NCBI GenBank assembly: GCA_036522275.1
Contig: DATDGC010000020.1
Coordinates: forward strand, 17,995-81,994
Source of the DNA: Burkholderiales bacterium
Lineage (GTDB): Bacteria; Pseudomonadota; Gammaproteobacteria; Burkholderiales; JAHFRG01
DNA: 64,000 nt
Direction of reading: 5' to 3'
Below, in pieces: positions 4,817 to 40,452 of the stretch. Below the pieces are notes generated by a model. The model was given only the letters and a program-made list of their open reading frames with translations, had not been told where the DNA came from and did not search any database. The stretch's first letter is position 1, and every line of letters starts with the position of its first letter. Position numbers and translations under genes: made by a program.

Positions 4817-5686
4817 TTGAGCACGGTTTATTTAAACGGTAGATTCATGCCCCTCGAGGAGGCGCGCGTTCCGGTGCTGGACCGCGGTTTCATTTTTGGC
4901 GACGGGGTGTATGAAGTTATTCCCGCGTACTCGCGAAAGCCATTCCGCCTCAAGGAGCATCTCAAGCGACTGCAGACAAGCCTGGACGGCATTCGCCTCA
5001 ACAACCCGCACAGCGATTCCCAATGGGTCGAGTTGCTTGCGCAACTCGTCACGCAAAACCAAGGCGAGGACCAGTATATTTATTTGCACATCACGCGCGG
5101 AGTGGCGAAGCGCGACCACGCTTTCCCCAAACAGGTCCAGCCCACAGTGTTCATAATGAGCACGCCGCTGCAAACCACACCCCCGGAACTTTTGAAAACC
5201 GGGGTAGCAGCTATTACCGCCCAAGATAACCGCTGGCTGCGTGGCGACATGAAGACGATTTCGTTGTTGCCCAATGTGCTGCTGCGGCAAATGGCGGTGG
5301 ATGGTGACGCAGGTGAGACCGTCCTGGTGCGCGACGGCTTTCTTACCGAAGGCGCAGCAAGCAATATCTTCGTGGTGAAAAACGGTGTGGTGCTCGCGCC
5401 GCCGAAAAATCACCTGATACTCCCCGGCATTACTTATGATGTGGTGCTGGAATTGGCAGCCGCTCATTCCATCCCGCACCAGGTGAGAGCGGTTTCCGAA
5501 GCCGAAGTGCGCACCGCACAGGAACTCTGGATGACTTCTTCCGGCAAAGAAGTATTGGCCATCACTACTCTGGATAACCAACCGGTGGGTGACGGCAAGC
5601 CTGGCAAGCTGTTCTGGCGCATGCATGAGTTGTATCAAAACTATAAAGCGACGGCAATGCGGCGGAGTGAGGCGCAGCACATATAA
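4817..5686 (+). CDS. class IV aminotransferase, D-amino-acid aminotransferase-like
   Basis: YLNGRFMPLEEARVPVLDRGFIFGDGVYEV is a fold-type IV N-terminus. The start is uncertain: TTG at 4817 or ATG at 4847. The ORF-track start at 4730 overlaps dacC. Confidence 0.7.
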   Translation: MSTVYLNGRFMPLEEARVPVLDRGFIFGDGVYEVIPAYSRKPFRLKEHLKRLQTSLDGIRLNNPHSDSQWVELLAQLVTQNQGEDQYIYLHITRGVAKRDHAFPKQVQPTVFIMSTPLQTTPPELLKTGVAAITAQDNRWLRGDMKTISLLPNVLLRQMAVDGDAGETVLVRDGFLTEGAASNIFVVKNGVVLAPPKNHLILPGITYDVVLELAAAHSIPHQVRAVSEAEVRTAQELWMTSSGKEVLAITTLDNQPVGDGKPGKLFWRMHELYQNYKATAMRRSEAQHI

Positions 5687-5701
5687 TATTAGAGCCGGTT
5701 A

Positions 5702-5968
5702 ATGGGCATAGAGCCTTCATTGATTGAATACCCGTGCTCTTTCCCTATCAAGATTATGGGCAAAAGCCAAGCAGGATTTGCACAAGCAATGATGCAAATC
5801 GTGATGCGTCACGCCCCCGACTTTGACCCCGCCAACATGGATATGAAGTCCAGCAAAAAAGGCAAGTACCTGAGCCTCACCTGCATCATTCAGGCCTCAT
5901 CGCGCGCCCAACTGGATGATCTCTATCGCGAGCTATGCGATCACCCGATGGTGGTGATGGTGCTCTAA
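5702..5968 (+). CDS. ybeD: YbeD/DUF493 family protein
   Basis: 88 aa with IEYPCSFPIKIMGK. Conserved position upstream of lipB. Confidence 0.85.
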   Translation: MGIEPSLIEYPCSFPIKIMGKSQAGFAQAMMQIVMRHAPDFDPANMDMKSSKKGKYLSLTCIIQASSRAQLDDLYRELCDHPMVVMVL

Positions 5969-8632: not shown

Positions 8633-11433
8633 TAATGTGCTTTTTCCCAGTTCGGTCCCGCCCCAACATCTACAACCAGCGGTACTTCCAATTTGGCAAC
8701 ACCACACATGAGCTTCGGCAACTCGGATTTCAGCAACCCGAGTTCGTCATCCGGCACTTCCAGCACCAGCTCGTCGTGCACTTGCATGATGAGCCTGGCT
8801 TTGAGCTGCTTTTGCCTAAGCCACTCGTGCACCGCAATCATGGCAAGTTTTATAAGATCCGCAGCGGTGCCCTGCATCGGCGCGTTGATTGCCGCGCGCT
8901 CCGCACCCTGCCGGTGCGCGCCGTTGGAGCTGTAGATGTCGGGAAGCCAAAGCCTTCTGCCAAGCACGGTTTCCACAAAGCCCTGTTGCTTGGCTAGTTC
9001 GCGGGTGCGCTGCATGTAGTCCGCAACCCCCGTGTAACGGGCGAAATAACGTTCCATGTAAAGCTGTGCCGCTGCTCGCTCGATGCCCAACTGGCTGGCC
9101 AAACCGAACGCAGACATGCCGTAAATCAGGCCGAAATTAATCACCTTGGCATAGCGCCGCTGCTCCGCCCCGACTTCCTTCGGAGGAATGCCGAAAATCT
9201 CTGCTGCGGTGGCGCGGTGGATGTCCTCGCCTGCGGCAAAGGCTTTGAGCAGGTTCGCGTCCCGCGAAATATGCGCCATGATGCGAAGTTCAATTTGCGA
9301 ATAGTCTGCTGATACAATCTGGTGGCCGGCGGAAGCAATAAACGCTTCGCGGATTCTGCGTCCTTCCTGGGAGCGCACCGGAATGTTCTGCAGGTTGGGA
9401 TCGTTGCTGGCAAGTCTGCCTGTTACCGCAACCGCCTGAGCATAATTGGTGTGCACCCGCCCGGTGGCCGGGTCCACCATGCGCGGTAGCTTATCCGTGT
9501 ACGTGGACTTAAGTTTGGCCAGGCCGCGGTAATCAAGGATGAGCTTGGGCAAAGGGTAATCCAGTGCGAGCTCCTGCAACACATCTTCATCGGTGGATGG
9601 CGCGCCGCCGGGCGTTTTCTTCACCACCGGAAGTTTGTGGCGCTCGAACAGGATTTCCTGTATCTGCTTCGGCGAATTGAGATTGAACGGTTGTTCCGCA
9701 AGCCGGTACACCTCGGTTTCAAGTTCCAGCATTCTGTTTCCCAATTCGCGGCTTTGTTCCCCCAGCAGTTTCACATCCAGCAGCACGCCGTTTCTCTCCA
9801 TGTCAAAGAGCACTTCGAGGAGCGGCATCTCTATACGCCGGTAAATCATCTCCAGTTTGGGGTCGGCAGCAATTTGCGGATATAGTGCCTGATGCAGTTG
9901 TAGCGTGATGTCGGCGTCTTCAGCCGCATATTCGGTGGCTTTGTCCACTGCCACCTGCTCAAAACTGATCCGCCCGGCGCCTTTCCCGGTCACTTCATCA
10001 TAAGTGATGGTTTTGACGCCGAGATGACGCTCCGCCAGATTGTCCATGTCATGCGCCCTGTGGCTTTCCAGCACATAGGATTGCAGCAAGGTGTCATGCG
10101 CAATGCCGGAAAGCACGACGTCGTGATTGGCGAAGATGTGCTTGTCATACTTGAGGTTCTGTCCAAGTTTGGGTTTTCCCGGATCTTCCAGCCAGGGCTT
10201 GAGCCGCTGTATAACCTGATGGAAATCAAGCTGAGCCGGCGCGCCGGAATAACGGTGCGCAAGCGGAATATAAGCGGCATGGTGCACTTCCACCGAGAAT
10301 GATATCCCGACCAACTTGTCCTGCAGCGGATCCAGCCCAGTGGTTTCGGTATCCACCGCCACCAATTGCGCCGCGTGAATACGCTTCAGCCATTTTTCCA
10401 GTTGTGCTTCGGTCAGAACGGTTTCGTAATTCTTTTGTGAGGGGTGAGGAGTAAGTGATGAGTGGCTTGGGCTCACCACTTGGTTTATGGCTTGATCTGA
10501 CTCCTTACTTCTTACGCCTAACCCCTTACTCTCTTTAAGCCAGTTTTTGAATTCAAATCGTTCGAACAGTTCGGCAAGTTTTGCGCTGTCGGGAGATTGC
10601 GGCACGAGATCATCCAGGCTTACCGGCAAAGCCACATCGCATTTGACGGTAAGCAGCTGGCGCGCTTGAGGAAGCCAGTCGAGAGATTTGCGCAAATTCT
10701 CCCCGACGACGCCGGGTATATCATTTGCATGCACCATCAGGTTGTCGAGCGTTTGATACTGTGTCAGCAGCTTCACCGCGGTTTTCGGCCCGACCTTGTC
10801 CACGCCAGGCACGTTATCCACACTGTCGCCAATCAGCGTCAGATACTCCAAGATACGTGAAGGCCCCACGCCGAATTTGGCAAGTACCCCCTGCTCATCA
10901 AGTTTTTCATTGCTCATGGTGTTGATGAGCGTAACCTGCGGGTTAACCAATTGCGCAAGGTCCTTGTCCCCGGTGGAAACGATGCTCTTTATCCCCTCGC
11001 GTGCGGCAAGCACGGTAAGCGTACCGATGACGTCGTCCGCCTCCACGCCTTCAATGATGAGCAGTGGCCAACCCAGGGCACGGATGCATTCGTGGAGTGG
11101 TTCAATCTGGACTGCTAAATCTTCCGGCATCGCAGGCCGGTTGGCCTTGTATTCGGGATACCACTCTTCGCGGAAGGTTTTGCCTTTTGCGTCAAACACG
11201 CAAGCGCTATAATCGGCCTTGTACTCGCTGTGCAAACGGCGCAGCATGTTGAGCACACCGTAAATCGCGCTCGTGGGCTCGCCCCGTCGGTTGCGCAAAT
11301 CGGGCAGTGCGTGAAATGCGCGGTAAAGGTACGAGGAGCCGTCAACCAAGAGCAACGTTTTGCTTCCGCTTGACGGTGCCTCGTGTTCCCTGTTGGAGTT
11401 TCCGGCAGCGTTTTTCATTTCGCCCTGCCGCAC
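8632..11433 (-). CDS. polA: DNA polymerase I
   Basis: 933 aa: 5' nuclease (LLLVDGSSYLYRAF), 3'-5' exonuclease (VAVDTETTGL) and pol domain (DYSQIELR, QVHDELV). Confidence 0.97.
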   Translation of the reverse strand: MRQGEMKNAAGNSNREHEAPSSGSKTLLLVDGSSYLYRAFHALPDLRNRRGEPTSAIYGVLNMLRRLHSEYKADYSACVFDAKGKTFREEWYPEYKANRPAMPEDLAVQIEPLHECIRALGWPLLIIEGVEADDVIGTLTVLAAREGIKSIVSTGDKDLAQLVNPQVTLINTMSNEKLDEQGVLAKFGVGPSRILEYLTLIGDSVDNVPGVDKVGPKTAVKLLTQYQTLDNLMVHANDIPGVVGENLRKSLDWLPQARQLLTVKCDVALPVSLDDLVPQSPDSAKLAELFERFEFKNWLKESKGLGVRSKESDQAINQVVSPSHSSLTPHPSQKNYETVLTEAQLEKWLKRIHAAQLVAVDTETTGLDPLQDKLVGISFSVEVHHAAYIPLAHRYSGAPAQLDFHQVIQRLKPWLEDPGKPKLGQNLKYDKHIFANHDVVLSGIAHDTLLQSYVLESHRAHDMDNLAERHLGVKTITYDEVTGKGAGRISFEQVAVDKATEYAAEDADITLQLHQALYPQIAADPKLEMIYRRIEMPLLEVLFDMERNGVLLDVKLLGEQSRELGNRMLELETEVYRLAEQPFNLNSPKQIQEILFERHKLPVVKKTPGGAPSTDEDVLQELALDYPLPKLILDYRGLAKLKSTYTDKLPRMVDPATGRVHTNYAQAVAVTGRLASNDPNLQNIPVRSQEGRRIREAFIASAGHQIVSADYSQIELRIMAHISRDANLLKAFAAGEDIHRATAAEIFGIPPKEVGAEQRRYAKVINFGLIYGMSAFGLASQLGIERAAAQLYMERYFARYTGVADYMQRTRELAKQQGFVETVLGRRLWLPDIYSSNGAHRQGAERAAINAPMQGTAADLIKLAMIAVHEWLRQKQLKARLIMQVHDELVLEVPDDELGLLKSELPKLMCGVAKLEVPLVVDVGAGPNWEKAH
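10437..10533. repeat. tandem-repeat-armed hairpin H2, inside polA
   Basis: Left arm GTGAGGGGTGAGGAGTAAGTGATGAGTGG. Right arm CTCCTTACTTCTTACGCCTAACCCCTTACTCTC. The arms are complementary allowing G-U pairs. Confidence 0.75.
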
Positions 11434-33917: not shown

Positions 33918-35519
33918 ATGCTGACGACGCCGCTTCCCGACATCCGACCAGGAACCACCACAGAGTTGAGCGACGCCGCTTCCTGCAAGCACTGGGTTGA
34001 GAAATTGCCGCTCACCAACCCTACACAGGCACACCAGGCAATAACCACAGAGCTTAAGCGTTTCCTGCAATTTAAGATGGGTCCGCTGGAGCGCCTCAAA
34101 ATGCTTGAACAGCTGCGCGAGACAGCGGAGTTGGTACAGACGGAGTGTGCAAAGAAATACGCCGCCAAACCGCTGCCGATGGCTGCGACGGAACTGATGT
34201 TGTGGAAACAGGTGGTTGAACTGTGGCAGACCCTGAGGGCGGCGTATCAGCGCTGCCTGCAGGATGCTGTTGAAGGCGGCGAAGAGGCGACAAAAAACGC
34301 CGCGCTCATTTGCCAGCGCTGCGTGCGTTACACGACATTATCCATTTTGGAGTATTACCTGACCAACCAGGAAGTTGGCTTGGATTTGCGGCGGCACCTG
34401 CATACGCTGTATGCGTTTGCCGAAAAACACGGCTTTGCCGATGCTGCGGTGCGTGACAGTCTTAACCGGGAAGTGAATGCCACAAGCTGCGCTGCGACCT
34501 ATGCCCAGGCGCTGTTGCTCGGCCTTGGCAATCCCTATTCGCTCACGCCCAAGCAGCTCGAACTCGCCAGGCGCTGGCTGGAAAAATGGGGCGATAATAT
34601 CAGTATCACAACTACACCGTCTGAGGGCGCATTTGTGCTGGCGGTAGATCTTGAAGGCAACCAGGGCGCGAATCCCGGGCACCAAGCAAGCGCTCCCGCT
34701 TCGACCCGCTATCTTGTCGTAGATGACCTGGCCAAAAACCTCATGAAGAGAATTGTGCTGCTCGAACAAGGGCAGTCGCCTGCGGAACTCGGCCTCGGCG
34801 CAGATTGCACGCAACCCGGCTGCGAGAGCCTTCTGAAGCTGCTTTACCAGCAGTGGTGCAAGCCGGGCAGCGCGGCGGTAAATCCACGCCGTCAGATAGA
34901 GAATACATTGCAAGTTTGTATCGGTATTCCGGCGATTCATTATTTTGTCAGTGGCAAACCGTTCAAGCAGCCCGGATCCCCGCAACTCTCCCGCCAAGAG
35001 GAAGAAGAGCTGGCGACCTTCGGTCACCTGAGCAAGCAGCGCGAAGTAATGCGGGCTTCGCAAATGGGTTATGCCCTGGAATCCTGGAAAACCATAAACG
35101 ATGGGCCCCAGGGTTTCGGCCTGGTGCGCGCGCCGGAGGGCGGCGGGTCACGCATGAACCTCCACCAGCTTATCGGAGTCTGTCCGGCAGACAGCAAGAC
35201 ATTTTTATTGTGTGTGGTGCAATGGCTCACTCTCAAGCAAAACGGTGAATTGCATCTCGGCGTGCGCACGCTGCCGGGAATTCCCGAACCCGTTGCGGTA
35301 CGGCCATTTGGGGGAGTCACAGGGCCTGTTTACGTACAGGCCTTTCTACTGCCGGATGTGGCGGATCAGAAGATCGAACCTTCGCTGATTCTTCCCGGCG
35401 GCTGGTTTCAGACGAGGCGGGTCATAGAGGTGTTTACCAGCGAGCCGCAGCGCGTAAAACTCACCAAGCTCCTGGAAAAAGGCAGCGACTACGAGCAGGT
35501 AGACTTTGGAAGTGCATAA
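33918..35519 (+). CDS. 533-aa conserved hypothetical protein: helical N-terminal region and a possible degenerate PilZ-like C-terminal barrel
   Basis: Long ORF with coding-like composition. The C-terminal part has REVMR (RxxxR), then INDGPQGFG and beta-rich sequence. No confident family call. Confidence 0.55.
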   Translation: MLTTPLPDIRPGTTTELSDAASCKHWVEKLPLTNPTQAHQAITTELKRFLQFKMGPLERLKMLEQLRETAELVQTECAKKYAAKPLPMAATELMLWKQVVELWQTLRAAYQRCLQDAVEGGEEATKNAALICQRCVRYTTLSILEYYLTNQEVGLDLRRHLHTLYAFAEKHGFADAAVRDSLNREVNATSCAATYAQALLLGLGNPYSLTPKQLELARRWLEKWGDNISITTTPSEGAFVLAVDLEGNQGANPGHQASAPASTRYLVVDDLAKNLMKRIVLLEQGQSPAELGLGADCTQPGCESLLKLLYQQWCKPGSAAVNPRRQIENTLQVCIGIPAIHYFVSGKPFKQPGSPQLSRQEEEELATFGHLSKQREVMRASQMGYALESWKTINDGPQGFGLVRAPEGGGSRMNLHQLIGVCPADSKTFLLCVVQWLTLKQNGELHLGVRTLPGIPEPVAVRPFGGVTGPVYVQAFLLPDVADQKIEPSLILPGGWFQTRRVIEVFTSEPQRVKLTKLLEKGSDYEQVDFGSA

Positions 35520-35630: not shown

Positions 35631-36041
35631 ATGGCAGGGCTCGACAAAAGCACCCCAACCCCGACTGAAATCAAGCTGCACCAGAAATCACGGGTATTGG
35701 AAATTTCCTTTTCCGACGGCAAAATCTTTCAGATTCCGTACGAATTTCTGCGCGTATATTCTCCTTCCGCCGAAGTGCGCGGTCACGGCCCGGGACAGGA
35801 AGTACTGCAGGTCGGCAAGAAAAATGTCGAGATTACCCGAATCGAGCCTGTAGGCAGCTATGCAGTGCAACCCTGTTTCTCGGATGGCCATGATACCGGC
35901 ATTTACTCATGGGATTACCTGTACCTGCTGGGGGTGAACCAGGAAAGCATGTGGCAGGAATACTTGAAACGCATGCAAACCGCGGGAGCAAGCCGCGAAC
36001 CGGTTGCCGGAGCGTTTGAGTCCCGTCCCAAATCCAAATAG
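35631..36041 (+). CDS. DUF971 family protein
   Basis: L.I.FSDGK...IPYEFLRVYSPSAE and FSDGHDTGIYSWDYLY. Confidence 0.75.
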   Translation: MAGLDKSTPTPTEIKLHQKSRVLEISFSDGKIFQIPYEFLRVYSPSAEVRGHGPGQEVLQVGKKNVEITRIEPVGSYAVQPCFSDGHDTGIYSWDYLYLLGVNQESMWQEYLKRMQTAGASREPVAGAFESRPKSK

Positions 36042-36153
36042 CAACCGCCCAGGAAAGCAATGCAAACTGAGAATATCTGCCGATCACAGAATGCATGGAG
36101 AATTTCATCTTTTACTTCCGTGTTCGTCCGGCTAATGTTTTTTAAGTTTGGTT

Positions 36154-36888
36154 ATGAGTAAATCTACCGATTTCGGTTTTCAAAAAATTGCCGAAGAGGA
36201 AAAAACCTCCCGGGTTGCGGGCGTATTCAACTCGGTGGCAAACCGCTACGACCTGATGAACGACCTCATGTCGTTGGGCGCGCACCGGCTGTGGAAACGT
36301 TTCACCGTCGAATTGAGCGCAGTCAAGGCCGGCGATCGTGTGCTTGATATTGCCGGCGGCACCGCGGATATGAGCCTGCTCTTCGCCAAGCGCGTGGGCG
36401 AAAGCGGCACAGTATGGTTCACCGACATCAACAACAGCATGCTTAAGCTCGGCCGCGATCGGCTGCTCGACAAAGGGCTGCCATTACCGGTCACACAATG
36501 CGACGCGGAAAAACTGCCTTTCCCCAGCGATTACTTCGATTGCGTGAGCGTTGCCTATGGTCTCAGGAACATGACGCACAAGGATTTGGCGCTCAAGGAA
36601 ATGCTGCGCGTGTTAAGACCCGGCGGGCGGCTTTTGGTGCTGGAGTTTTCCAAAATCTGGAAACCCCTGCAGCCGCTCTACGATGTGTATTCGTTCAAGG
36701 TATTACCGGCTCTGGGCAAGCTCGTCGTCAACGACGCAGACAGCTACCACTATCTCGCCGAATCCATCCGCATGCACCCTTCCCAGGAAGAACTGAAGCA
36801 GATGATGGAAAGCGCGGGATTCGAGCGCGTCGAATACTTCAACCTCAGCGCAGGTGTCGTCGCGCTGCACCGCGGCTACAAGTTTTAA
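36154..36888 (+). CDS. ubiE: ubiquinone/menaquinone C-methyltransferase UbiE
   Basis: FGF..I....K...[22 protein letters not shown] and LD.AGGT.D. Confidence 0.92.
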
Positions 36889-36894
36889 AACTCA

Positions 36895-38334
36895 GTGGAC
36901 ACTATCACGGTTAATCCTCCCGGATTGCAATCACGCTTCACTGGCGCATTCAAAGTCATTCTCATTAACCTCTATGAGCTGGGACGGCAACCCTTTGCGC
37001 TGGCCGAACCCGCGGCATGGCTGAAACGCGAGGGATTTGAAGTTACCTGCCTTGATCTTTCCTTGCAAAAGCTCGATGCGGAGGCGCTGGCAGAAACTTC
37101 GCTGGTCGCCATATACGTCGGCATGCACACTGCAACGCGCATTGCAGTGAAAGCGCTGCCACACATCAAACAGCTTGCTCCCGGGGCGCACCTGTGCGTC
37201 TATGGCTTGTACGCGCCCATGAATGAAGTGCTCTTGAGAAGCCTCGGGGTGCAAACCGTACTTGGCGGTGAATTCGAGCCGGGACTGCTAAATCTGGCAC
37301 AACGGCTCAGAAACAAGCAAATCTCTGCTACGCAAGTTGAACCGGTGGTTAATCTGAACAAAATCGATTTTGTAGTGCCTGAGCGTTCGATTCTTCCGCA
37401 TTTGCAGCACTACACCCGGCTGGAACTGCCTGACGGAAGCAAAAAAGTGGTTGGCTTTGCCGAAGCCAGCCGCGGCTGCAAACATCTATGCCGCCATTGC
37501 CCGGTGGTGCCGGTGTACCGGGGCAAGTTCCGCATTGTGCCGGTGGAGGTAGTGCTGGCGGATATCCGCCAGCAGGTAGCGATGGGCGCGCAGCATATTT
37601 CCTTCGGCGACCCTGATTTCTTCAACGGCCCGGCCCATGCCCTGAAAATCGTGCGCGCGTTGCACGGGGAATTTCCCAAAATCACTTACGACGCCACTAT
37701 CAAAGTGCAGCACCTAATCAAACATGCGAGCCTCTTGTCGGAATTGAAAAAAACCGGCTGCCTGTTCATTACCTCGGCAGTGGAATCAGTGGACGACCGC
37801 ATTCTTGAATACCTGGCCAAAAACCACTCGAGTGAGGATTTCAACCGCGTTGTAGCGCTGATGCGCGAAGCTGGTATCGCTTTTTCTCCGACTTTTGTCG
37901 CATTCACCCCGTGGATCACGCTCGAAGGTTATATCGAACTGTTGCGGCGTATCGCCGATCTCGATCTCGTTGAAAGCGTGCCGCCGGTGCAACTTTCCAT
38001 TCGCCTGCTGATTCCCGAAGGTTCATACCTGCTGCAATTGCCGGGTTTTCGCGATCTCACCGAGGATTTCGACCCGGGTCTTTTGGGCTATCCGTGGCGG
38101 CATCGCGATCCGCGGGTGGATCGCCTGCAAAGCCAGGTGCAATCGCTGGTTGAACAGTCGAAGAAGCTCCCGCGCCGCGAAGCGTTCGAACACGTCTGGC
38201 AAACGGCGCATGGCGCGCTGGGCATTCCCATTCCTGCTTTGCCCAAGTCCAAAAACCAAGAACCGGCCCCCCGATTATCCGAGTCCTGGTATTGCTGTGC
38301 CGAGCCAACCCATCAGCAGTTGCAGAGTTTTTAG
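36895..38334 (+). CDS. B12-binding-domain radical SAM protein with a C-terminal CCAEP tail
   Basis: GTG start 6 nt after the ubiE stop. N-terminal B12-binding-like domain. CKHLCRHC (C-x3-C-x2-C) at 37477..37500. WYCCAEPT at 38287..38310, 8 residues from the C-terminus. Confidence 0.8.
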   Translation: MDTITVNPPGLQSRFTGAFKVILINLYELGRQPFALAEPAAWLKREGFEVTCLDLSLQKLDAEALAETSLVAIYVGMHTATRIAVKALPHIKQLAPGAHLCVYGLYAPMNEVLLRSLGVQTVLGGEFEPGLLNLAQRLRNKQISATQVEPVVNLNKIDFVVPERSILPHLQHYTRLELPDGSKKVVGFAEASRGCKHLCRHCPVVPVYRGKFRIVPVEVVLADIRQQVAMGAQHISFGDPDFFNGPAHALKIVRALHGEFPKITYDATIKVQHLIKHASLLSELKKTGCLFITSAVESVDDRILEYLAKNHSSEDFNRVVALMREAGIAFSPTFVAFTPWITLEGYIELLRRIADLDLVESVPPVQLSIRLLIPEGSYLLQLPGFRDLTEDFDPGLLGYPWRHRDPRVDRLQSQVQSLVEQSKKLPRREAFEHVWQTAHGALGIPIPALPKSKNQEPAPRLSESWYCCAEPTHQQLQSF

Positions 38335-38380
38335 GGACGAACCTGGCGTCCTTGGCGCCTTGGCAGCTTGGAATTAATAA

Positions 38381-39628
38381 ATGAAGCACATACTCCTCCT
38401 TCTTCCAACCACCTCTTACCGCAACAACGATTTCCTCGCCGCGGCCGAAGCGCTCAACGCCGAAATCATCAGCACAGCCGATTACTGCCATCAACTCGCG
38501 CCGCAATGGGGATTGACGCCCATCATGTCGGTGCATTTCGATATGCCCGAACAGGCAGCGGGAACCATCCTGCAAGCGCTTACGCGCAAGCCCGAAGCGG
38601 TGCTGGCGGTGGATGATCACGGCCTCGAGCTTGCGGCATTACTCAATGAGCGCCTTGGGCTTACAGGAAACAAGCCGCAGGCGGTGCGAAGGCTGCGCGA
38701 CAAACTGGCATTCCGCAAGCTGCTCAGCGCGCATGGATTCAACTGCCCTGAATTTCATCATCTGCCGGATAACGACGATCCTGCCGCCCTAATTCCGCGG
38801 CTGCGTTTCCCGGTAGTGGTCAAAGCAAGAAGACTCTCGGCGAGCCGCGGCGTAATCCGTGCCGACAATCCACAGCAATACCTGCAGGCCATAACCCGGG
38901 TGCGCGCAATCCAGAACAAGGCCGACCGCGACGCTGCAGCGCTTGGCCTGGTTATAGAAAGCTTTATTCCAGGGATGGAATACGCTCTTGAAGGCCTACT
39001 GGAAGATGGTCACCTCAAAACCCTCGCGCTCTTTGACAAGCCTGATCGGCTGGATGGGCCCTATTTCGAGGAAACGCTTTATGTCACGCCCTCACGGCTG
39101 CCGCGAAAAACCCAGGATGAGATACAGCAAACTGTGCAGCGCGCCTGTAATGTCGCAGGACTGACTACCGGCCCAACGCATGCGGAAATGCGCTTGAACA
39201 GCGCAGGCATCTGGCTTCTGGAAATTGCAGCGCGCTCAATCGGCGGCTTGTGCGGGCGTGTATTGCGCCATACATTGGGAATGAGCATCGAGGAACTGAT
39301 TTTGCGTCATGCTCTGGGCGAAAAGCTCCCCGCACCTGACTTTGACTGCGCTGCCGGCGTAATGATGATCCCGATCCCGATGCGCGGCATATATCAGGGT
39401 GTGCACAATCTCGACCTCGCCGGGAAATTGCCGGGCATCGCCGATATCCAAATCACCGCTGAAATCGGGCATATCGTCATTCCGCCGCCTGAAGGCGCAA
39501 GCTATCTCGGCTTTATTTTTGCCAGCGCCGCGAACCCGCAGGAGGTTGAATCGGTCATAAGATCAGCGCACCGGTGTTTGCAATTTGATATTCAGCCCGA
39601 ATTCCAAATGGTAGAATCTTCAACATGA
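38381..39628 (+). CDS. ATP-grasp domain protein (carboxylate-amine/L-amino-acid-ligase-like)
   Basis: 415 aa with a pre-ATP-grasp domain. RDKLAFRKLL, PVVVKARRLSASRGV, ESFIPGMEYALEG and THAEMRL. Confidence 0.75.
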   Translation: MKHILLLLPTTSYRNNDFLAAAEALNAEIISTADYCHQLAPQWGLTPIMSVHFDMPEQAAGTILQALTRKPEAVLAVDDHGLELAALLNERLGLTGNKPQAVRRLRDKLAFRKLLSAHGFNCPEFHHLPDNDDPAALIPRLRFPVVVKARRLSASRGVIRADNPQQYLQAITRVRAIQNKADRDAAALGLVIESFIPGMEYALEGLLEDGHLKTLALFDKPDRLDGPYFEETLYVTPSRLPRKTQDEIQQTVQRACNVAGLTTGPTHAEMRLNSAGIWLLEIAARSIGGLCGRVLRHTLGMSIEELILRHALGEKLPAPDFDCAAGVMMIPIPMRGIYQGVHNLDLAGKLPGIADIQITAEIGHIVIPPPEGASYLGFIFASAANPQEVESVIRSAHRCLQFDIQPEFQMVESST

Positions 39629-40452
39629 AACATACCGCCATAAAAAGATTTATCCTGCTGCTCGTTCTTGCCTTGGTAAGCCTTGGGTTTGCCAGCCATG
39701 ACGCTCCAGCAGCCAAGCGCCTCGGCAGCGGGAGCAGCCTCGGCAAGCAGCATGATTCGGCAAGCCGTCACGCCTCGCCCATCACCCCGCCTCCAGCCCA
39801 GGCCCCCTCACCTGCTCCAGCGGGCAGTACCTGGCTGTTCGCGGGATTGGCGGCAGGCGGATTGCTTGCGGCTTTGTTTACCGGCGGCGCCTTTAATGGA
39901 ATCCGCTTCGCAGACATAGCGATGATCGCGCTGCTGTTTGGAGCGGTGTTTTTCATCATTCGCATATTGCGCAAGAAACCGGTAAACGAACCGATGCAGT
40001 ACGCTGCGCTGGGAGCGGAAACCACGCCTTCGCTGCCGGCAAGGATGTTCGGCGGCGTGGCACGACCTGCGCCCTATCCGGTTGGTTTCGAAATCGACCC
40101 TTTCCTGCGCAACGCCAAGGCGGGCTTCATCCGCCTGCAAGCCGCGAATGACAACAAGGAACTCGACACTATCCGCGACTACACGACACCGGAAACGTTT
40201 GATGAATTGAGCAAGCAAATCGCAACGCGCGGCAATGACCCGAAAAAAACCGACATCATCACGCTCGATGCGGAAGTGCTGGACGTGGTAATTGAAGATA
40301 ATTTGGCCATTGCCAGTGTGCGCTTCAGCGGGCTCATCCGTGAAGCCACCGGCGCACCAGCCCGGCCGTTCTATGAAATCTGGAACGTGCAGAAATACCT
40401 GGGCGAGCCCGATTCGGTGTGGCTGCTCGCCGGCATTCAGCAAGTTCGCTGA
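39625..40452 (+). CDS. Tim44-like domain membrane protein
   Basis: ATGA overlap with the ATP-grasp gene. Signal/TM regions, a Pro/Ala-rich linker, and a C-terminal Tim44-like domain (FDP..FL..AK..F..LQ.A.D......IRDY.TPE.F). Confidence 0.7.
   Translation: MKHTAIKRFILLLVLALVSLGFASHDAPAAKRLGSGSSLGKQHDSASRHASPITPPPAQAPSPAPAGSTWLFAGLAAGGLLAALFTGGAFNGIRFADIAMIALLFGAVFFIIRILRKKPVNEPMQYAALGAETTPSLPARMFGGVARPAPYPVGFEIDPFLRNAKAGFIRLQAANDNKELDTIRDYTTPETFDELSKQIATRGNDPKKTDIITLDAEVLDVVIEDNLAIASVRFSGLIREATGAPARPFYEIWNVQKYLGEPDSVWLLAGIQQVR

Follow-up and report, generated by a model that had tools for sequence, protein, structure and literature searches.

In a 64,000-nt stretch of a Burkholderiales bacterium (GCA_036522275.1, contig DATDGC010000020.1, positions 17,995–81,994 of the forward strand; hereafter the window), the genes of a CCAEP-tail radical S-adenosylmethionine (SAM) enzyme, which we call rSAM, and of an ATP-grasp ligase stand among ubiquinone (ubi) genes. 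A survey of about 160 related loci (80 near and 80 distant) demonstrates that both genes are parts of a widely conserved cassette, whose usual form in Beta- and Gammaproteobacteria is (YggX)-DUF971-rSAM-ATP-grasp. The explanation that we favor, with a probability of roughly 0.4, is an ArsL-like rSAM/ligase cassette tied to iron and iron-sulfur (Fe-S) cluster maintenance, and not to ubiquinone synthesis. The DUF971 gene at 35631–36041 is part of the conserved unit; a preliminary description of this DNA had overlooked it, as well as the YggX/Suf/NifU/IscA/CDGSH context found at related loci. The cassette genes of the window and the two motifs of rSAM are given below in window coordinates.

35631..36041, + strand: DUF971 (GBBH-like_N), 136 aa; PF06155, E 1.7e-32
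36895..38334, + strand: CCAEP-tail radical SAM enzyme (rSAM), 479 aa, GTG start; NF040546, 614.2 bits against a cut-off of 500
37477..37500, + strand: CX3CX2C motif CKHLCRHC of rSAM, residues 195–202 (C195, C199, C202), predicted [4Fe-4S] site, read from the translation
38287..38310, + strand: WYCCAEPT tail of rSAM, residues 465–472, with vicinal C467-C468; TGG TAT TGC TGT GCC GAG CCA ACC
38381..39628, + strand: ATP-grasp ligase of the L-amino-acid-ligase type, 415 aa; PF13535, E 1.8e-29, and PF18603 (LAL_C2), E 3.7e-13

DUF971, the ATP-grasp ligase and YggX are the recurrent neighbors of rSAM

For the near set, one genome per species was scanned with an alignment of close homologues. At least 582 relatives were confirmed and the best 80 loci were used; they show 63–89% identity and come from Burkholderiales, Nitrosomonadales, Acidiferrobacterales, Sulfuricaulis, and other Gammaproteobacteria. 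Neighbors were detected by tblastn with the window proteins; contigs are often short, and denominators below 80 are the loci with enough flank. DUF971 lies upstream of rSAM within 1.2 kb in 55 of 74 near loci, and the ATP-grasp gene follows rSAM within 1 kb in 49/67, with a median gap of 15 nt. YggX is found in half of the near loci (40/80); of these genes, 29 lie upstream in the same orientation, and 9 are just downstream in the reverse orientation. This neighbor matches PF04362, “oxidative damage protection protein”, with 133 bits against a cut-off of 74. The closest DUF971 homologues that were sampled (P0158, P0221, and P0154) all stand in the order DUF971-rSAM-ATP-grasp; for the homologue P0213, the contig ends within the gene that comes after DUF971. 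A second architecture lacks DUF971 and has ATP-grasp/IscA-like genes divergent from YggX-rSAM (L043, L053, L072, L082, and L083).

A further 80 loci (L089–L168) were obtained by scanning metagenomes with distant members of the family as seeds, to which they show 37–46% identity. In this branch, YggX lies directly upstream of rSAM (median 27 nt) in 16/68 loci, the same type of ATP-grasp gene is present in 11/33, a CDGSH [2Fe-2S] protein in 9/68, and DUF971 was seen once. By chance, a given gene would lie no more than 3 kb from another with a probability of about 0.0015. The variety of the arrangements around rSAM argues against simple inherited synteny.

Open reading frames (ORFs) of at least 60 aa were clustered over all loci; the ORF caller was crude and gave many antisense artefacts in GC-rich contigs. 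Across the near and distant loci, nothing recurrent was found past DUF971, ATP-grasp, and YggX, except genes specific to subsets (Suf/NifU, IscA-like, CDGSH, crotonase, and formyltransferase-like genes). In the size range covered, 60 aa and longer, no small ORF recurs except YggX, DUF971, and CDGSH, which fits the earlier impression that obvious features of a ribosomally synthesized and post-translationally modified peptide system are absent.

Several loci carry particular neighbors. Two contigs (39 and 17) of the metagenome-assembled genome MFD00962.bin.3.90 hold near-identical DUF971-rSAM-ATP-grasp-YggX cassettes (L007 and L019), through duplication or strain heterogeneity of the bin. In L087, the cassette is directly followed by a CcdA/CcdB toxin-antitoxin pair (9234–9799), and a protein of about 530 aa, SagB/nitroreductase-like by its sequence motifs, comes directly after ATP-grasp in L079 (12654–14423) and four other loci. 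In the distant branch, a CDGSH-type gene (PF09360, E 4e-18) is placed about 39 nt upstream of the selenocysteine (Sec)-type rSAM on the opposite strand in L132 (1031–1297, − strand) and eight other loci. Upstream of the Sec-type rSAM, soil metagenome loci also carry a formyltransferase-like gene (10 loci, for example L101, 181–1167, − strand) or an enoyl-CoA hydratase gene (13 loci, for example L152, 7009–7767, + strand).

rSAM belongs to a large family with a Cys-Cys or Cys-Sec tail

The preliminary description assigned rSAM to the CUAEP/CCAEP-tail radical SAM (seleno)protein family, and the NF040546 score listed above agrees with this; the match spans residues 21–477. The CKHLCRHC motif was found as described. 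The WYCCAEPT tail is also present, at seven residues from the C-terminus and not eight. An exhaustive search for representatives returned 550 clusters at E ≤ 1e-30. Among the best 150, on which the tails were tallied, ...EPW[YF]C is the exact end of 44, and CCAEP is present in 36. In 63 of the 73 resolvable tails of the distant loci, an in-frame TGA is followed by the conserved AEPT, so that Cys-Sec members do occur among the relatives, as had been proposed; the window protein has a Cys (TGT). Selenocysteine in this rSAM family is real and common. In public protein sets, Sec-type members are mostly called short at the TGA (P0242–P0341, L089–L168) and thereby lose their conserved AEPT... tail, a systematic artefact of annotation.

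The CX3CX2C motif is kept in 98% of 55 family sequences (54 representatives and the window protein) and in the ArsL-type protein P0369. C467 is invariant and position 468 is either a Cys or the point of Sec truncation. Family-wide, the cluster triad, C467, and C/U468 are the only near-invariant cysteines. C52, C101, and C289 were considered as an auxiliary cluster site and rejected: they are invariant among close relatives only and are 24–67% conserved in the wide family. In the neighbor-joining tree, CU and CC forms are interspersed.

ArsL is the closest characterized relative of rSAM

The second-best family model on rSAM is that of ArsL (NF040542, RCCLKC-tail), with 280.9 bits against a cut-off of 450. 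As a control for this model, the true ArsL P0369 reaches 477 bits. The two proteins are 33% identical and the RCCIKC tail of P0369 aligns its CC with C467/C468. The neighbor-joining distance from the window protein to ArsL is 0.70, against 0.72 to the most distant CU/CC members. Both enzymes combine a Rossmann-like N-domain, a CX3CX2C core, and a Cys-rich C-terminal tail. They differ in several respects. The ArsL tail is a three-Cys CCxxC that binds As(III), whereas the window protein ends in CCAEP without the third Cys (CC or CU in the family), and rSAM stays below the ArsL cut-off. The partners of rSAM are an L-amino-acid ligase, DUF971, and YggX instead of arsM/arsQ. The ArsL family counts 147 sequences, compared with the 550 representative clusters of the window's family, many of whose members are selenoproteins. 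Judged from these sequence comparisons, the CU/CC-tail family appears to be a sister family of ArsL, and a much larger one.

ORF clustering of the loci revealed no arsM or arsQ neighbor and no recurrent ars-like cluster; the methyltransferase gene adjacent to rSAM in the window is a bona fide ubiE. By analogy with ArsM, a methyltransferase was considered as a recurrent partner and discarded: none recurs, and neither of the UbiE-like genes in L087 and L130 is orthologous to UbiE (no hit; 34% identity).

ArsL cleaves SAM at the S–C(gamma) bond, and the acceptor of the 3-amino-3-carboxypropyl group is an As(III) that the tail of ArsL holds; this tail binds the substrate and is not an auxiliary cluster site (10.1101/2024.02.01.577332; 10.64898/2026.04.29.721666). 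The “MCCA” tail variant of ArsL is the most efficient on methylarsenic (PMC13598754).

Fold of rSAM: possible canonical or cobalamin-dependent chemistry

The AlphaFold2 model of rSAM (pLDDT 81, pTM 0.85) presents a Rossmann-like N-domain, a partial TIM barrel, and a helical C-domain. No solved close homologue was found; the best sequence match in the PDB is AprD4, at E 1e-6. AprD4 (6FD2), a radical SAM 1,2-diol dehydratase, is also the top Foldseek match of the model (E 1e-15), ahead of TsrM, OxsB, and MgmA (E 1e-12 to 1e-14) and of MiaB/RimO. It shares the Rossmann-like N-domain, with a TM score of 0.62–0.66 to rSAM, but is only 17–18% identical, lacks a Cys-Cys/Sec tail, and belongs to a biosynthetic cluster, in which an aminoglycoside is its substrate.

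Since AprD4 is a canonical 5′-deoxyadenosyl radical enzyme, this structural match would fit a reading in which rSAM uses the canonical radical, its Cys-Cys/Cys-Sec tail is a redox shuttle that re-reduces the active site, and its substrate is a metabolite or protein of Fe-S stress. Sec is usually a redox residue, and thioredoxin reductase has a redox-active vicinal Cys-Sec tail at its C-terminus, which that of the rSAM family resembles. The free interconversion of CU and CC forms across the tree is consistent with the same reading. We nevertheless consider it doubtful. The nearest characterized relative in sequence, ArsL, uses the homologous tail for substrate binding, and the identity and sequence match to AprD4 are low, as given above.

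A B12-binding-type N-domain had been attributed to rSAM, with the suggestion of a class B, cobalamin-dependent methyltransferase acting on unactivated carbons. The resemblance holds at the level of the fold, where the Rossmann-like N-domain and the matches to TsrM, OxsB, and MgmA are what such an enzyme would show; a B12-binding domain does not come out, with PF02310 far below threshold at E 0.23 and 11.8 bits against 32.1. In favor of such an enzyme, PF02310 is marked, as a weak match, in the relative P0103, and the NCBIfam models of B12 radical SAM families do match rSAM weakly; these models give at most 44 bits on rSAM against cut-offs of 251–650, to be compared with 281 for ArsL. A 2026 review reports that AprD4 and ArsL homologues bind no cobalamin despite having such domains (PMC12931638). 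With ArsL as closest characterized relative and AprD4 as best structural match, the domain predictions do not support rSAM as a cobalamin methylase, and we regard this chemistry as highly improbable. A further match, to DUF364 (“putative heavy-metal chelation”), covers residues 40–122 below threshold (E 0.046, 13.8 bits against 23) and probably reflects only the shared Rossmann-like fold.

The ATP-grasp protein resembles L-amino-acid ligases

Both domains of the ATP-grasp protein are above threshold: ATP-grasp_4 with 102.9 bits (threshold 27) and LAL_C2 with 50 bits (threshold 29.4). This domain pair is that of the BacD, DdaF, and BL00235 ligases. Among solved structures, the nearest relative is BL00235, an L-amino-acid ligase (3VOT; E 3.7e-33, residues 54–395), which makes Met-Gly and Met-Met with methionine as the N-terminal substrate (PMC6920838). 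The window protein is distinct from BacD and DdaF, at 35–39 bits against equivalog cut-offs of 840–850. It also differs from dipeptide-antibiotic ligases in being paired with a radical SAM enzyme and not placed in such a cluster.

L-amino-acid ligases are typical of dipeptide antibiotics. The pair could thus be read as an arsinothricin-type system for a metabolite or for detoxification, in which rSAM would produce a “warhead”, an organo-metalloid amino acid, from which the ligase would form either a Trojan-horse dipeptide or a detoxified conjugate. The ArsL relationship with its aligned CC tail, the efficiency of the “MCCA” variant on methylarsenic, and the weak BacD and DdaF matches all point in this direction, and Haft, who lists the family as uncharacterized, ties CU motifs to organometallic biochemistry. 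On the other hand, the ORF clustering showed no recurrence of ars genes, of an exporter, or of a self-resistance gene around the cassette. The family is very large (550 clusters), strongly conserved (63–89% identity across orders), and syntenic with housekeeping genes, unlike patchy biosynthetic clusters, and the ArsL family itself is small. Taken together, this makes an arsinothricin-type role unlikely.

For the explanation that we favor, the following course can be proposed. rSAM would work most likely without cobalamin, and its flexible C-terminal Cys-Cys (Cys-Sec in relatives) would hold a thiophilic atom or a substrate. The held substrate would then receive a part of the SAM molecule; in analogy to ArsL, this part is most probably the 3-amino-3-carboxypropyl group, and the product would be an amino acid similar to methionine, which the L-amino-acid ligase would condense with a second amino acid, using ATP. 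As an aminocarboxypropyl-X amino acid would count among the analogues of methionine, we infer that the pairing of rSAM with this ligase would be chemically coherent. YggX and DUF971 may either serve the rSAM cluster or act in the same stress response. Our confidence is low in the chemistry itself, an ArsL-like transfer of aminocarboxypropyl to a thiophilic atom bound by the tail and a subsequent ligation to a dipeptide.

DUF971 and YggX suggest a link of the cassette to Fe-S maintenance

The DUF971 protein of the window belongs to the same subfamily as the nuclear magnetic resonance structures 2L6N and 2L6P (E 1e-37 and 3e-32). In mutant-fitness data from Shewanella and Pseudomonas, Price et al. 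observed cofitness of DUF971 with Mrp, BolA, and YggX and a sensitivity of the DUF971 mutants to cobalt or paraquat; they named DUF971 an Fe-S cluster maintenance protein (10.1101/072470). A cobalt transposon-sequencing screen in P. putida also picked out PP_5002, a DUF971 protein (PMC12041740). The two proteins of this set, DUF971 and YggX, are the two most frequent neighbors of rSAM; in the organisms studied by Price et al., by contrast, DUF971 lies next to ubiE or a pha cluster, without rSAM and the ligase. No papers linking DUF971/YggX to a radical SAM enzyme were found in the literature.

Suf/NifU genes occur in at least six near loci, and the Pfam-annotated neighborhoods, taken around more distant members and around the nearest DUF971 homologues, include beside the cassette Iron_traffic (YggX), Fe-S_biosyn, an IscA/ErpA-like gene, SufBCDS/NifU operons, Rieske, Rrf2, and TusA. 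These neighbors suggest a physiological role of the cassette in Fe-S or metal stress.

Placement of the cassette among the ubi genes of the window

The ubi genes and the Tim44-like gene that surround rSAM and ATP-grasp in the window are the following.

36148..36888, + strand: ubiE; NF001240 equivalog, 412.9 bits against a cut-off of 378
39625..40452, + strand: Tim44-like; PF04280
40462..41019, + strand: UbiJ (SCP2); PF02036
41045..42562, + strand: UbiB; NF003404, 818.6 bits against a cut-off of 667

The gene order and all the spacings of the preliminary description were recovered, with agreeing ORF coordinates and after reading the junction DNA: 6 nt between ubiE and rSAM, 46 nt between rSAM and ATP-grasp, a 4-nt ATGA overlap between ATP-grasp and Tim44-like, then 9 nt and 25 nt. 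The pair is thus packed inside the ubi genes as in an operon. It had also been stated that the run is free of terminator-like hairpins. This is true of the intergenic DNA, where a hairpin and promoter scan from ubiE to ubiB detected neither a terminator nor a promoter, but not of the run as a whole, which has terminator-like hairpins on the + strand at 39853, 39928, and 42504, every one within coding sequence. Overall, 15 terminator-like matches were counted against 15.4 expected from shuffles, and promoter-like matches were likewise at the shuffled level. The 46-nt spacer between rSAM and ATP-grasp has no significant structure (z 0.06). The GC content is uniform over the region and hence leaves no mark of a recent insertion. 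Further upstream, between a HIT-family gene and DUF971, the window encodes a 533-aa protein (33918–35519, + strand) without a Pfam or NCBIfam match; a homologue is found at the same place in L001, L002, L004, and L005 (75–84% identity), and L080 has two diverged copies (39–43%).

From this arrangement, it had been proposed that the pair acts on a quinone or on a precursor of one, or modifies a protein of the Ubi complex, working with UbiE, UbiJ, and UbiB. The neighborhood survey speaks against it. ubiE, Tim44, ubiJ, or ubiB are found in 6 of the 80 near loci (L001, L002, L004, L005, L068, and L080), or in 3 of the 47 with long flanks, leaving 74/80 near loci with no ubi gene beside rSAM; true ubi genes are absent from all 80 distant loci. 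Tim44-like/ubiJ/ubiB stand downstream of the cassette only in L001, L004, L005, and L080 among the near loci. In the neighbor-joining tree of these loci, the ubi-embedded order splits into two rSAM lineages, L001/L004/L005 (the clade of the window) and L068/L080, and every other lineage is without ubi genes. By its equivalog score, UbiE is a bona fide ubiquinone/menaquinone C-methyltransferase; it is context, outside the conserved cassette. The Tim44-like/UbiJ/UbiB genes are likewise context, specific to the lineage of the window. In L087, the UbiE-family methyltransferase that is not orthologous to UbiE lies divergently upstream of the cassette (4911–5702).

The order of genes in other bacteria offers an explanation of the placement. 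At most of the other near loci DUF971 is directly upstream of rSAM; in the window ubiE separates the two. In Stutzerimonas (L170, 5001–8445), the order hslVU-DUF971-ubiE-ubiJ-ubiB occurs without rSAM. In P. putida-like DNA (L169, 5001–10384), phaC1-phaZ-phaC2-phaD come directly after DUF971, in place of ubiE-ubiJ-ubiB. The adjacency of DUF971 and ubiE is therefore an old one, independent of rSAM, and the two orders indicate that the slot after DUF971 tolerates unrelated insertions. Most likely, DUF971 is common to the cassette and the ubi operon, and the two merged in the lineage of the window, so that the old DUF971-ubiE adjacency would explain the position of the pair.

An indirect tie to the ubi genes remains. 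DUF971 adjoins ubiE even in Stutzerimonas, where rSAM is missing, and the ubi-embedded order, with the 6-nt gap after ubiE and the ATGA overlap with Tim44-like in the window, is found in two rSAM lineages. Against these observations stand the scarcity of ubi genes beside rSAM, the UbiE-like genes of L087 and L130 that are not UbiE orthologues, the pha cluster that fills the slot after DUF971 in P. putida, and the fitness data, which put DUF971 with Fe-S maintenance and not with quinone synthesis (10.1101/072470). We conclude that a function of the pair in ubiquinone metabolism is distinctly unlikely.

Evaluation of the proposed Fe-S maintenance cassette

A number of observations weigh against an ArsL-like cassette serving Fe-S maintenance. 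Aminocarboxypropyl chemistry, with its S–C(gamma) cleavage, is not readable from a sequence, even in the case of ArsL. The tail of rSAM offers two thiol ligands and not three, and no ars genes are nearby. No papers that characterize NF040546, describe the cassette, or link NF040546 to YggX or DUF971 were found in the literature. On the side of physiology, yggX and suf genes are absent from the 64-kb window, which has only DUF971 of the Fe-S set. In the distant branch, ATP-grasp and YggX are adjacent to rSAM in just a quarter to a third of the loci. The detection of neighbors relies on tblastn in contigs that are often short, and related species are not independent samples. When the DNA upstream of the cassette was searched for sites of IscR, Fur, and OxyR, good IscR type-1-like sites came out in L027 and L024 only, the rest being not distinguishable from controls. 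Finally, two lineages have the cassette tightly packed into the ubi operon, which may yet be the sign of a functional tie.

The site in L027, ATAGTTGACTAAATTGCTCAGACAT, lies upstream of YggX-rSAM and has 21/25 consensus positions, and that in L024 has 18/25; both loci are from Acidiferrobacterales.

Significance of the cassette

The reading of rSAM and its ligase as new ubiquinone genes is tempting but weak, and the survey corrects it. ArsL is so far the sole radical SAM enzyme of canonical fold known to cleave SAM “the wrong way”. A bolder generalization, which we put forward as speculative and rather improbable, is that the CU/CC-tail family, with the window protein, would be a large group of non-canonical, aminocarboxypropyl-transferring enzymes that form a C–S, C–Se, or C–metal bond on a swinging tail and, with the ligase, would make a new small molecule that keeps Fe-S clusters intact. 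If true, the orphan Fe-S maintenance proteins YggX and DUF971 would gain a concrete biochemical pathway. The genetic tie of the rSAM family to the ligase, YggX, and DUF971 turns three orphan families into one testable pathway, and suggests that non-canonical SAM chemistry is connected with Fe-S/metal-stress physiology in common soil and freshwater bacteria.

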